Origin: Schmidtea polychroa | Lineage: Eukaryota | Length of the DNA stretch: 64,000 bases | Assembly: GCA_044892525.1 (NCBI GenBank) | Contig: CM097886.1 | Span: forward strand, 93,000,001-93,064,000 | Direction of reading: 5' to 3' | In this document: positions 14,946 through 18,306 of the stretch, in pieces | Position numbering within the stretch: position 1 is the first letter of the stretch | How the letters are laid out: each line of letters opens with the position of its first letter | Made by a program: the position numbers and the translations under genes | The notes under the pieces: generated by a model | Databases searched by the model: none | Seen by the model: only the letters and a program-made list of their open reading frames with translations | What the model was told of the DNA's origin: nothing

Positions 14946-15446
14946 TTAAACAATGAAATAATTTAAAATTAACAATGGCCATTTAAATATTGATGTACTC
15001 ATATTTGCTGCCATCTTGTTTGAAATTGGTAAAGTTGAATTGGTTTTCAAATTTTCTATCGATTCTTTTATTGTTCGAATTTCGAATATTATTAAATCAA
15101 TCTTTCTTAACAAATGATCATGTTTCTTATCAATAATTTTCATATTCTTTTTATTTTCAACAATTGAGTTATTGAAAACCTCAATATGATCAATCAATTT
15201 AAATTTTATATTTTGTATATATTCAAAAGATAGGTCATAGCTGTTTTCTAAATTCTCCAATCTTTGGGATATTTTTTTTCCTGGATGCTTTGCCCATTTT
15301 GGTTTGTCAAGAATATATAAAATATCCATCAACTTGGCGGTATTTGGACAAATACATATTGATTTATTAAAAGACTCCACCGTTATTGTTGTATTGTGTG
15401 AGCACACATTCCTTATAATAATTAGCAATAGAAATATAGTTTTCAT
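14946..15446 (-). CDS. 166-aa predicted secreted or GPI-anchored coiled-coil glycoprotein (Polinton accessory gene)
   Basis: ATG start; N-terminal hydrophobic signal (MKTIFLLLIIIRNVCS); five NxS/T sequons; heptad-like middle; hydrophobic C-terminus (IFKWPLLILNYFIV); AATAAA overlapping the stop. Confidence 0.65.
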   Translation of the reverse strand: MKTIFLLLIIIRNVCSHNTTITVESFNKSICICPNTAKLMDILYILDKPKWAKHPGKKISQRLENLENSYDLSFEYIQNIKFKLIDHIEVFNNSIVENKKNMKIIDKKHDHLLRKIDLIIFEIRTIKESIENLKTNSTLPISNKMAANMSTSIFKWPLLILNYFIV

Positions 15447-15555
15447 GTTGTATCAAATCTATTATGTTTTACATTTATAGTCTATCAACCAATCAGAATC
15501 ATATTACACACACAGTAGTATAAATAAGACAGTATATTAAAAATTATTGTAAAAA

Positions 15556-15856
15556 ATGTTTAAATTTATTGAAAACGTTCTAAATGGACTAGTCACAGCG
15601 AATATAGTCGACAGCCTTAATTTCCTGGTCAATCGGACCGCACAAATTATTGAAGGCAACCATATCGACTACCAGAGCATGCTTGATATGGATTGTCTTG
15701 AATCAAAGAAGAATTATTTTAACAATATATTTCAATGTCTCTGCGATGAAGACATGCAATGGACAAGAATTATTGTAGGGTTCACCTACATGAAGATAAT
15801 CATTGCGAAAAGCCAACATGACTCAGAACATTATTATCAGTGGTCTTTAGAAGTAA

Positions 15857-15890
<34 letters not shown>

Positions 15891-16076
15891 TTTTAGATAA
15901 TCAAATCCAAGTTTAGTCCATGGATAGAAGATAATGGCGGATGGGATACACTCAATCAACTCGCCCGCAATGCTAAAGAAACTGATGAAATCAAAAGAAA
16001 AATGAAAAACTATATTAAACTCACAACAGTAGTTGTTTTATTGTATATGTTATTTAAATATTTAAATAAATATTAA
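15556..16076 (+). CDS. Bcl-2 family protein, two exons (15556-15852, 15897-16076), 158 aa
   Basis: Removing a 44-nt GT-AG phase-0 intron joins BH1-like LCDEDMQWTRIIVGFTY to BH2 SPWIEDNGGWD and a C-terminal transmembrane tail IKLTTVVVLLYMLFKYLNKY. Confidence 0.85.
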
Positions 16077-16118
16077 TTTTTGTTATTTTTCTTATGTATA
16101 AAAAACAAATTTTAAAAT

Positions 16119-16535
16119 TTAACATTTTTTAACACATTCACAATAGTCATCTCCACATTTCATAATATTATCAACTACATGATCTATACAATCGTTAGGT
16201 TGTTCTTGATTGTTTTCTCCATCAATTTCTTGGATGTTTTCTCCATCAATTTTTTGGGTGTTTTCACTAATTTCTTGGGTGTTTTCACTAATTTCTTGGG
16301 TGTTTTCTCCATCAATTTCTACATCAATTTCTTGACTCACTTCACTTTCATCAAATCCTGAATCTTGACTTTCAACTATCCAGCCTATATTTAATGCATT
16401 TGCAACAGATAATATATCCTCAACATTTACACCAGCTATTTCTGCCAATTTTTCCAACAAAAAGTTGATTACAATTTCTAAATAATAAATAATTCGGTAA
16501 GTTATTAATCAAAATTAACCTTTTTCTGTAGTCAT
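16119..16535 (-). CDS. Small acidic protein with ENTQEIS-type repeats and a Cys-rich C-terminus, two exons (16535-16520, 16477-16119)
   Basis: The ORF track starts at TTG. An ATG exon (MTTEK) joins in frame through a 42-nt GT-AG intron. Ends CGDDYCECVKKC. Confidence 0.6.
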
Positions 16536-16687
16536 TTTTATTAACACTTTTAAACTATAATGTAAGTTTGTTTATAGAATGTCTTTGTTAAATTTGCATT
16601 ACTGTTGCATTAATATTAATAAAATAAATAAGATTAAATACATTAAATACATTTATTAAAATACATTATATACATTTATTAAATACA

Positions 16688-17095
16688 TTAAAATAGTTGT
16701 GAAAGCCTAGCAGACATAATTTTCCAAATTGGAGAATACACATCATTATTATCGACTTTATATCCTTGGATTGCAATTGTTATATACCAATTTTCGTTTT
16801 CTTTGAAACTGATTTCATCAAAGGCATCATAAAATTTTGCATATCGGTTGTTGAACCATGCATTTTGATTACATGATAGATTTGAATTCAACCGTTTGAA
16901 AACATCATCTATGGTTTTAACATCTACCATTGAAAGCGTGCCGGATAAGAATTGAAATTGAGTTGGAATTAACTTGACCGGTGCAACCAATTTCATATTG
17001 ATTTCTTCTTTTAAAAAATACATTTTGTAGTTGTGGAACATTTGAACAGGCTGGACAAGTTCATCTTTCGGTTTTTCAGTGCTTTTCTTGACCAT
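16688..17095 (-). CDS. 135-aa protein, possibly an OB-fold single-stranded DNA-binding protein
   Basis: ATG start with upstream CCAAT and TATAAAA boxes. C-terminal pattern FYD...YITIAIQGY...YSPIWKIMSARL resembles T7 gp2.5-like/giant-virus SSB strands (by-eye inference). Confidence 0.5.
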   Translation of the reverse strand: MVKKSTEKPKDELVQPVQMFHNYKMYFLKEEINMKLVAPVKLIPTQFQFLSGTLSMVDVKTIDDVFKRLNSNLSCNQNAWFNNRYAKFYDAFDEISFKENENWYITIAIQGYKVDNNDVYSPIWKIMSARLSQLF

Positions 17096-17868
17096 CGTGA
17101 ATTATGATTAAAATGAAATGGTACAGGGTTTTTATACCTTCAAAATAAATGGAACAACCAATCAGATTAAAGTTTAAATTGCATCAATGTTGCACATGCT
17201 TTGCATTTGTATTGCACATGTCTTTGTTTAAATTGCATCAATGTTGCACATGGTTTGCATTAATGTGTCTTTGTTTAAATTGCATNNNNNNNNNNNNNNN
17301 NNNNNNNNNNNNNNNNNNNNNNNNNNNNNNNNNNNNNNNNNNNNNNNNNNNNNNNNNNNNNNNNNNNNNNNNNNNNNNNNNNNNNNNNNNNNNNNNNNNN
17401 NNNNNNNNNNNNNNNNNNNNNNNNNNNNNNNNNNNNNNNNAAAACAAAATACATAAAAAAATATTTATTAATTTAAATCAACAATCCTAGAATAAGTTTC
17501 TAAGTGTTTTTACTAAATTCCATTCTACATATCGCTGATAACGACCAACTGCATCCAATAATACATGGATATTCCATTTCTTTCTGCATTCTGTCGATCT
17601 ACTCATTGGAATTGATTCAATATATCGAACATCCAGATTCTTGTATACCAAATCTGGTATAATCTCTGAATCTCTGTCCTTTATTCAATTGAGGATAGAA
17701 ATACTTGAGGCAATCATTTGGAATATTCATCTATAAAATATATAAAAAATATATATAAATTAAAAATTTACCGTAATTATCGATCTCAGACATTGATTTT
17801 GCCGCGCTAGTATTAATGACATCTAAACAGTTAATATTATTATTATTAACCAATTAGAAATTAACCAA

Positions 17869-18306
17869 TTAGAAATCGACCAATGAATTTAACTCATTCC
17901 GAACATTGTTAACAAATTCCCTATAGTCTAATTTTCTCAACCCAAGCATGACAACCTTTCCACTTGAAAACACATTGACACATATAGGGTTATATTTTAA
18001 TAGTCTTAGTGCCGGAAACAATTCCGGTTCAAACATACAATCACATTTTCTCGATATTTTGTATAAATTGATAGTATGTCCCATATCCATAGTAACGGTA
18101 ATTGATTGAATTTTAATATTATTGATTCGATATTGTAATTTATTAATATCCAATGGTTCCTTACATCCCATAATTCTGCATTTGCCAGTCTTGAAAAATA
18201 TTATCTGATATTTCCCGCTTCTATCGACAATTTGCTGTGGTTTTCCTGGTGGGAACCTCATTTTTGAAATATCAAAATTTCCTCGATAATTTATATTTGC
18301 AAGCAT
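17869..18306 (-). CDS. TATA-binding protein (TBP)-like protein, 145 aa
   Basis: Two TBP repeats: IIFFKTGKCRIMGCK and KIQSIT...FEPELFPALRL...VNVFSSGKVVMLGLR, compared with canonical YEPELFPGLIYR...LIFVSGKVVLTGAK. Confidence 0.88.
   Translation of the reverse strand: MLANINYRGNFDISKMRFPPGKPQQIVDRSGKYQIIFFKTGKCRIMGCKEPLDINKLQYRINNIKIQSITVTMDMGHTINLYKISRKCDCMFEPELFPALRLLKYNPICVNVFSSGKVVMLGLRKLDYREFVNNVRNELNSLVDF

Follow-up and report, generated by a model that had tools for sequence, protein, structure and literature searches.

The locus examined here raises the question of what a cluster of small genes does in the left arm of a Maverick/Polinton element of the planarian Schmidtea polychroa. The element lies in a 64,000-nucleotide stretch (GenBank assembly GCA_044892525.1, contig CM097886.1, positions 93,000,001 to 93,064,000 of the forward strand), which we call the window and number from its first letter (Table 1). 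An original prediction, made from the letters of the window, had described five compact accessory genes in this arm as the early, adenovirus-like host-control module of an endogenous virus with an infectious phase. Our analysis favors a different reading, to which we give a probability of roughly 0.62: the left arm is a conserved and likely exchangeable six-gene Polinton module, in which a protein predicted to bind single-stranded DNA (SSB) and a miniature TATA-binding protein (TBP) likely serve the element's own replication and late transcription, while a likely host-derived Bcl-2 protein would keep the host cell alive. We read the arm as a core of viral genes for replication and transcription (SSB, TBP and a small protein, g6) to which variable host-facing cargo (Bcl-2, perhaps g1) is added.

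All five predicted genes were present, as judged from their open reading frames (ORFs), from Pfam and from comparison with sister copies, these being the surface-like g1, Bcl-2, the acidic g3, the SSB gene g4 and the TBP-like gene; the list was incomplete, however, as a sixth gene, g6 (17487-17793), had been overlooked. A genome search with the TBP-like protein listed at least 150 matches, at least 85 of them at 94–100% identity (family A) and at least 65 at 90% (family B). We compared the left arms of 32 A and 28 B copies, taken from the best TBP matches, and the complete set of six genes stood in the window order at 30/32 A and 26/28 B loci (56/60). Mean ratios of nonsynonymous to synonymous substitution (dN/dS) between A and B, calculated by the Nei-Gojobori method from at most 10 by 10 open copies of each gene, were 0.30 for g1, 0.07 and 0.32 for exons 1 and 2 of Bcl-2, 0.29 for g3, 0.12 for SSB, 0.08 for g6 and 0.15 for TBP; the values for three core genes were 0.08 (the packaging ATPase), 0.18 (the gene we presume to be PZ, in 19060-19976) and 0.18 (integrase). 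The arm is under purifying selection between these subfamilies. Because it is conserved, ordered and constrained (dN/dS 0.07-0.32), the random variation between copies and neutral evolution that had been named as evidence against a functional cassette were not seen.

A second listing of TBP matches added family C (at least 23 matches at 81–100% identity to the query) and family D (at least 127 at 66–67%), and we saw that the four families in this genome carry differing versions of the arm. Family C has g6-like, TBP, SSB and intronless Bcl-2 genes beside the polymerase (three copies; a fourth, from a related subfamily, has this set of four genes too), while family D has TBP, g6-like, SSB and g3 genes with no Bcl-2 and no g1 (three copies). 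Over the four families SSB, TBP and g6 are found in 4/4, Bcl-2 and g3 in 3/4 and g1 in 2/4, and g6 adjoins TBP in every family. The core proteins of family D are 87–98% identical to those of B; its TBP is 54% identical to that of B and 65% to that of C, and its g3 shares 34% identity with g3 of B. On these percent identities, the simplest reading is that the arm of family D appears to have been swapped at the boundary between TBP and ATPase. The family D SSB gene also seems to have two introns.

Outside this genome, we found 68 relatives of the TBP-like protein among 73 candidates, and a metagenome scan confirmed 176 relatives, of which the best 80 loci, mostly short, were analyzed; 39 of these carried a Polinton core gene and 20 an SSB gene, the corresponding numbers among the 36 loci of at least 3 kb being 27 and 12. 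Since TBP and SSB occur in all four families and in metagenome Polintons, they are old genes of the lineage and not recent captures from a host. Bcl-2, g1, g3 and g6 gave no tblastn match in 81 metagenome and viral loci, most of them short, and g3, g6 and Bcl-2 no profile match in such loci; a search of viral contigs returned one distant TBP locus without Polinton genes. In the TBP-bearing metagenome Polintons (L047-L101) we noted by eye an exonuclease-like family (20 ORFs), phospholipase A2-like proteins (14) and several small acidic or Cys-rich proteins.

The TBP assignment was confirmed by Pfam (E-value 1.8e-16), and a profile of the TBP-like protein matches 35 TBP sequences in the PDB. Its first repeat matches the second weakly (hhalign probability 86%, over 28 columns), with 12/53 sequences scoring above 8 bits and none of the shuffles doing so. 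Residues E93, E95, F38, F97 and F113 are invariant in 53/53 sequences; we take these to be the stirrup that binds TFIIB and three of the four phenylalanines that intercalate into DNA.

The promoters of the arm fall into two classes, and g3 goes with the structural genes. The predicted bidirectional promoter (15447-15555) was found as described, with a single CCAAT shared and one TATA in each direction, and the CCAAT/TATA promoters proposed for the arm held for g1, Bcl-2 and g4, but g6 has a CCAAT without TATA, TBP a TATA without CCAAT, and g3 a TATAAAC box. Likewise, the poly(A) signals said to lie at the stops are there for g1 and Bcl-2 (AATAAA overlapping or abutting), whereas those of g4 and g6 are 10–20 nt downstream and none occurs within 60 nt for g3 and TBP. 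In the window element all six TATAAAC sites are on the coding strand, 36–147 nt ahead of a start. Across A and B copies the word lies upstream of g3 (57/57), ATPase (58/60) and PZ (55/56) and never upstream of TBP (0/60), while CCAAT lies upstream of g1 (53/58), Bcl-2 (52/55), SSB (57/57) and g6 (48/48), rarely g3 (1/57) and never TBP (0/60). The CCAAT word alone is weak evidence, because it also occurs within coding sequence ahead of integrase (53/56). In one copy each of families C and D, TATAAAC is found at comparable distances ahead of ATPase, integrase, PY and major capsid, and in the metagenome loci it precedes ATPase (20/28) and major capsid (6/7), with lower counts for integrase (2/18), TBP (1/71) and SSB (0/19).

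The product of g4 had been called SSB-like, and its predicted structure agrees with that label, showing the oligonucleotide/oligosaccharide-binding (OB) fold of T7-type SSBs. When the model (predicted local distance difference test score, pLDDT, 89.7; built from 19 sequences) was ranked against 48,161 PDB representatives, African swine fever virus (ASFV) CP312R, DUF2815, Enc34 SSB and T7 gp2.5 came out on top, with Z 7.0-7.3, root-mean-square deviation 2.8-4.0 and 101-125 aligned residues; the next row scored 5.9. Foldseek also placed Enc34 SSB first, with no significant E-value, and a search of BFVD gave 22 matches at E<=0.001 (best 2e-6), the named ones all being uncharacterised giant-virus proteins. 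An SSB profile searched against PDB sequences found nothing under E 0.4. With moderate confidence, resting on the model, we take g4 to encode a T7-type SSB with a gp2.5-type OB fold.

The Bcl-2 label was likewise sustained, as BH1, BH2 and a C-terminal anchor are present; exon 1 reached a Pfam E-value of 0.003, below the cut-off, and the intronless family C relative passes it. Exon 1 has two close relatives in the protein collection. In the genome we found one single-copy Bcl-2 relative outside any Polinton (L106), whose next-best matches, at 48% identity, include family C copies, and in a 12-row tree the Bcl-2 genes of families A, B and C group with it. In L106 a splice donor directly follows BH2, and a likely anchor exon is found 3 kb further along; the family C gene is uninterrupted at this point, and families A and B have their intron at another place than L106. 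From these comparisons Bcl-2 looks host-captured, alone among the arm genes, and the pattern fits capture through an mRNA with an intron gained later, the direction being unproven. The Bcl-2 intron is GT-AG in 28/32 A and 25/28 B loci, those in which the pattern was found, and in family A it is 32–67 nt long, with 10/28 lengths multiples of three and the exons mostly open; given its varied lengths, the few multiples of three and the open exons, it resembles a spliced intron. The introns of g3 and g6 are also GT-AG. Elsewhere in the genome, seven near-identical Bcl-2 family matches cluster on one contig (G000:C4:89.9-90.8 Mb, L102), with no Polinton gene in the one locus examined.

The remaining arm genes are less easily placed. 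The description of g3 as an acidic, Cys-tailed protein was accurate (30 D/E and 5 C in the 118 residues of exon 2), and no LxCxE motif was found in it; the family A protein has a degron-like DSGxxxS word, which we weighed as a possible beta-TrCP decoy and dropped since family B reads differently there. Found in families A and B only, g1 has a hydrophobic N-terminus, weak coiled-coil matches as its sole Pfam result and only two close relatives in the protein collection; a surface location is plausible from these features. The g6 model is helical with a Cys cluster (pLDDT 82.4), and no fold search gave a clear match (Z of 5.4 at best, and none in BFVD at E<=0.001). Among 1.84 billion proteins searched with a profile, six relatives of g6 came up, none functionally named; an Atlas search with g6 and g1 gave no usable match, PHROGs was blank for 7/7 arm and neighbor proteins, and a complex prediction for TBP with g6 scored 0.00, which gave no answer. 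Exon 2 of g6 has seven short indels in the window copy and is open in 17/32 A and 27/28 B copies, and across 33 A copies we counted 69 indels in this exon versus 0-5 in every other stretch tested. Seven or eight A copies have g6 lesions together with many of a set of substitutions elsewhere in common, which argues that a sub-lineage spread without g6 and kept the other five genes. Within the g6 region (17487-17830; L001, L004, L005, L143, L149, L150, L153, L156, L157, L159) the same short deletions also occur in scattered, non-nested subsets on an intact-type background, and these patchy deletions could be due to gene conversion between copies or to an assembly-polishing artefact.

A working model for the arm would run as follows. 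Host RNA polymerase II would first read the CCAAT promoters (g1, Bcl-2, SSB, g6) and the plain TATA of TBP; the SSB would coat the strands displaced by the protein-primed polymerase; and the miniature TBP, perhaps with g6, would then activate the CCAAT-less TATAAAC genes (g3, ATPase, PZ, integrase, PY and major capsid). Of 12 sequencing runs listed, six contain part of the stretch, none of which is recorded as RNA. Several observations weigh against this reading of the arm. The copies compared were chosen from the best TBP matches, which favors young, intact ones, and the dN/dS values of 0.07 and 0.08 for Bcl-2 exon 1 and g6 come with saturated dS; g6 exon 2 is moreover broken in 15/32 A copies. 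For g4, Foldseek against the PDB gave nothing at E<=0.001, and a Z of about 7 is within the range that the tool itself assigns to a mere common arrangement. Raw enrichment of the TATAAAC word was rejected as a line of evidence (24 found versus 24.5 expected), and host TBP can use TATAAAC as a TATA, which may make a viral TBP unnecessary for reading the box. The branch joining the element Bcl-2 genes to L106 (support 90/90) is below the starred threshold in a tree that has long branches and leaves out host candidates L104 and L105. Finally, families A, B and C as well as L106 carry Thr or Ser in place of the NWGR glycine of BH1, and because of this replacement the anti-apoptotic activity that we infer for the element Bcl-2 is uncertain.

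A bolder form of the same idea is possible though in our view doubtful. In it, a Polinton of 16-17 kb would run a herpesvirus-like two-stage program, with a CCAAT early set (SSB, Bcl-2, surface protein, g6) followed by a stripped-down TBP and its g6 cofactor, which would switch on the virion genes; a T7-type OB-fold SSB would work with a protein-primed polymerase, the whole arm would be traded between co-resident families, and a retro-captured Bcl-2 with a new intron would protect the stem cells in which the element multiplies.

The reading of the original prediction, an adenovirus-style early host-control region of a still-infectious virus with all genes acting early on the host, we consider unlikely. 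It draws on Bcl-2 being in 3/4 families, on the resemblance of g1 to a surface protein, on host-type CCAAT promoters at 4/6 genes and on constraint in the virion genes between families (dN/dS 0.08-0.10 for major capsid, 0.10-0.17 for protease and 0.26-0.49 for minor capsid). In the text available to us, Barreat and Katzourakis read a like selection signal in fish Mavericks as evidence for particles (PMC8097293), and here too it suggests, indirectly, an infectious phase. The arm is nevertheless not one early unit, because g3 carries a structural-gene promoter and TBP and SSB are lineage-wide; only Bcl-2 is evidently host-directed, and family D, which lacks both Bcl-2 and g1, still has at least 127 TBP copies. 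Nor did the adenovirus-like organization hold as homology: searches of Pfam, of the PDB and by fold brought up no adenovirus match for any of the arm proteins, g3 is without LxCxE, and the adenovirus DNA-binding protein (DBP) is not an OB fold in the account that the consulted text of PMC8276246 gives, which leaves an analogy, one to the control region of a small DNA virus.

We also judge it improbable that the element now spreads only as a transposon inside the germ line or stem cells, with the arm serving persistence there (Bcl-2 protecting stem cells, as for the Burro1 inhibitor of apoptosis, IAP) and the capsid genes serving intracellular transfer or being left over from a viral phase that ended recently. 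Open genes for capsid, protease and ATPase that are constrained between families, and close relatives in environmental metagenomes, speak against such confinement, although integrated copies that number in the hundreds, are nearly identical and have target duplications, several spliceosomal-type introns that differ in length and a sub-lineage that went on spreading with g6 broken would all suit it. So would the description, in the text seen of PMC8532177, of planarian Polintons as piRNA (PIWI-interacting RNA)-silenced and de-silenced in differentiation, and the report, cited via part of PMC13465017, that Burro1 IAP protects stem cells. That the miniature TBP is a decoy, binding TFIIB or host TATA boxes and damping host transcription instead of activating viral promoters, is very improbable despite its reduced, weakly matching first repeat and invariant stirrup glutamates, as the box is at a fixed position before structural genes in four families and in metagenome relatives and almost never before TBP.

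Table 1. Positions of the element, its left-arm genes and promoters, and its core genes in the window
Feature	Position	Strand	Remarks
Maverick/Polinton element	13521-29326 (15.8 kb)		Paired AGTAG ends, 6-bp target duplication, long inverted arms
Left terminal inverted repeat	13521-14360	+	Element start 13521; 6-bp target duplication on both flanks
g1, 166 amino acids	14946-15446	-	Signal-peptide-like start, coiled-coil middle, five sequons, mildly hydrophobic end
Bidirectional promoter	15447-15555		One shared CCAAT (15489-15493), one TATA in each direction
Bcl-2 family gene	Exon 1 15556-15852, GT-AG intron 15853-15896, exon 2 15897-16076	+	BH2 and C-terminal hydrophobic tail in exon 2
g3, acidic protein with Cys-rich tail	Exon 1 16520-16535, intron 16478-16519, exon 2 16119-16477	-	Families A, B, D
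TATAAAC box upstream of g3	16570-16576	-	Same word before ATPase, PZ, major capsid
g4, predicted OB-fold single-stranded DNA-binding protein, 135 amino acids	16688-17095	-	CCAAT and TATA promoter; families A, B, C, D
g6, small helical Cys-cluster family	17487-17793 (two exons; intron 17731-17771)	-	Between SSB and TBP
TBP-like protein, 145 amino acids	17869-18306	-	Head-to-head with ATPase; full second repeat, reduced first
A32-like packaging ATPase	18415-19038	+	Pfam Pox_A32 E 1.2e-06; TATAAAC box 18375-18381
PZ-like gene, small overlapping ORF (19555-19776), integrase exon 1 (rve)	19060-19976	+	
Foreign stretch with GIY-YIG ORF	20114-21153		Replaces integrase exon 2 and presumed minor capsid gene
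Presumed major capsid gene (21494-22720) and adenain-type protease	21494-23136	+	Capsid by position and size
Presumed protein-primed family B polymerase	24325-27849	+	Frame stops earlier than in sister copies
Right terminal inverted repeat	28390-29326	-	

The rest of the element is of Polinton type, and exact 6-bp duplications were found in 5/6 other full copies examined. Integrase exon 1 matches Pfam rve (E-value 9.4e-08), exon 2 being absent from the window copy, and the protease, on a sister copy, matches Peptidase_C5 (1.4e-07) and adenain in the PDB (2.5e-04). The two capsid genes, for which double and single jelly-rolls are expected, had no library match and were assigned by position, size and conservation. 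Searches of Pfam, PHROG and PDB gave no polymerase match for the long frame at the right, which we take to be the polymerase from its motifs, size and position; the GIY-YIG ORF of the foreign stretch is presumably Penelope-like. Set against two sister copies, the window copy lacks exon 2 of integrase as well as the presumed minor capsid gene and has a short polymerase frame, so it is not an autonomous virus by itself.

Several smaller features of the core were noted. The 73-residue ORF at 19555-19776 (+), which overlaps the start of integrase in another frame, is 87–89% identical in most family B copies, and its Met-Gly start and Cys-Cys pair make a lipid anchor possible. A small gene between protease and polymerase (23658-23884, +) has two apparent GT-AG introns and a CCAAT promoter. 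The integrase and protease genes are apparently split by introns too (19977-20113 and 22721-22800; also in L003 and L125), some of the introns being expanding AAT repeats. Several copies show nesting with other pieces of Polintons or rearrangement relative to them (L002 and L135, L020 and L139, L131 and L132).

Whether animal Polintons are working viruses, and when their genes act, is an open question. The present family, which has many copies, a defined promoter code, a TBP and an SSB of its own and a death regulator of likely host origin, makes it directly testable with animals and data that already exist, RNA interference and PIWI knock-down being routine in planarians. Parts of the cargo are already in print for adintoviruses or related viruses, namely Bcl2, ssDNA-binding and TBP genes: in the portions available to us, Starrett et al. 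(2021), who named adintoviruses for their likeness to adenovirus, describe Bcl2, IAP and Oncoid genes as cargo in their text, mark 'SSDBP' and 'Bcl2' on supplementary maps and name TBP in a figure legend for the related MELD viruses (PMC8502044). In the literature searched, which lay outside Repbase, subscription journals, bioRxiv supplements, image-only figures and part of the Starrett supplement, we found no description of a planarian Polinton arm of this kind, and a word search of a 2026 preprint on these viruses found no mention of TATA, Bcl or planarians.

The nearest known systems are the adintoviruses and animal Mavericks/Polintons, which, in the text searched (PMC8502044, PMC8097293), have in common with the present element terminal inverted repeats, a 6-bp target duplication, an rve integrase, an A32-like ATPase, an adenain protease and accessory regions flanking the core. 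The same text contains no SSB fold type, promoter classes or flatworm example, and it reports intact vertebrate Mavericks to be intronless, whereas Bcl-2, g3 and g6 have GT-AG introns here; introns in Polinton-like elements are known from dinoflagellates, as described in part of PMC11957031. The transcriptional side of the arm may be likened, by analogy, to beta- and gammaherpesviruses, in which, according to the text seen of PMC4893493, a viral TBP-like factor (ORF24, BcRF1) reads simple late TATT promoters that lack the upstream elements of early ones. The differences are that here the protein is free-standing and 145 residues long, in an element of 16-17 kb, with a TATAAAC box. Large DNA viruses have been recorded as encoding TBPs and OB-fold SSBs (PMC11410667, in the part available).

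On the replication side, the predicted OB fold of g4 likens it to T7 gp2.5, Enc34 SSB, ASFV CP312R and giant-virus SSBs, though its identity to them is only 3–16%. T7-type SSBs are described, in the parts seen of PMC4889955 and PMC8276246, as accompanying RNA-primed replication, the SSBs of protein-primed systems being unrelated or remotely OB-like, and a T7-type SSB next to a protein-primed polymerase would, if true, be an exception to this published generalization. With adenovirus early regions (E1A, E1B-19K, E2A DBP, E3) the arm has, by analogy, a mix of anti-apoptotic, transcriptional, ssDNA-binding and possibly surface functions near a terminus; the protease is related, and protein-primed replication is presumed for the element. 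Homologs of E1A (with its LxCxE), E1B-19K and DBP were, however, not found in the arm, whose Bcl-2 is closest to a host gene, and adenoviruses are not known to have a TBP gene.

The likeness that bears most on Bcl-2 is to the planarian Burro retroelements, mobile elements of the same kind of genome with captured cell-death regulators (IAP or BCL2-like domains, in the text available of PMC6431247), which belong to another element class than Polintons. In this genome we saw a multi-copy Gypsy polyprotein (L117, L118, L119, L121 and many other matches) with open frames of up to ~3,050 residues holding Gag, a Bcl-2-like domain, an env-like stretch and pol, and its Bcl-2-like domain falls outside the group of Polinton Bcl-2 genes in the 12-row tree. 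This polyprotein fits the published description of Burro-2/3/4 and a second, separate capture of Bcl-2, and two separate captures by mobile elements in one genome would suggest apoptosis as one of the main pressures facing elements housed in adult stem cells.

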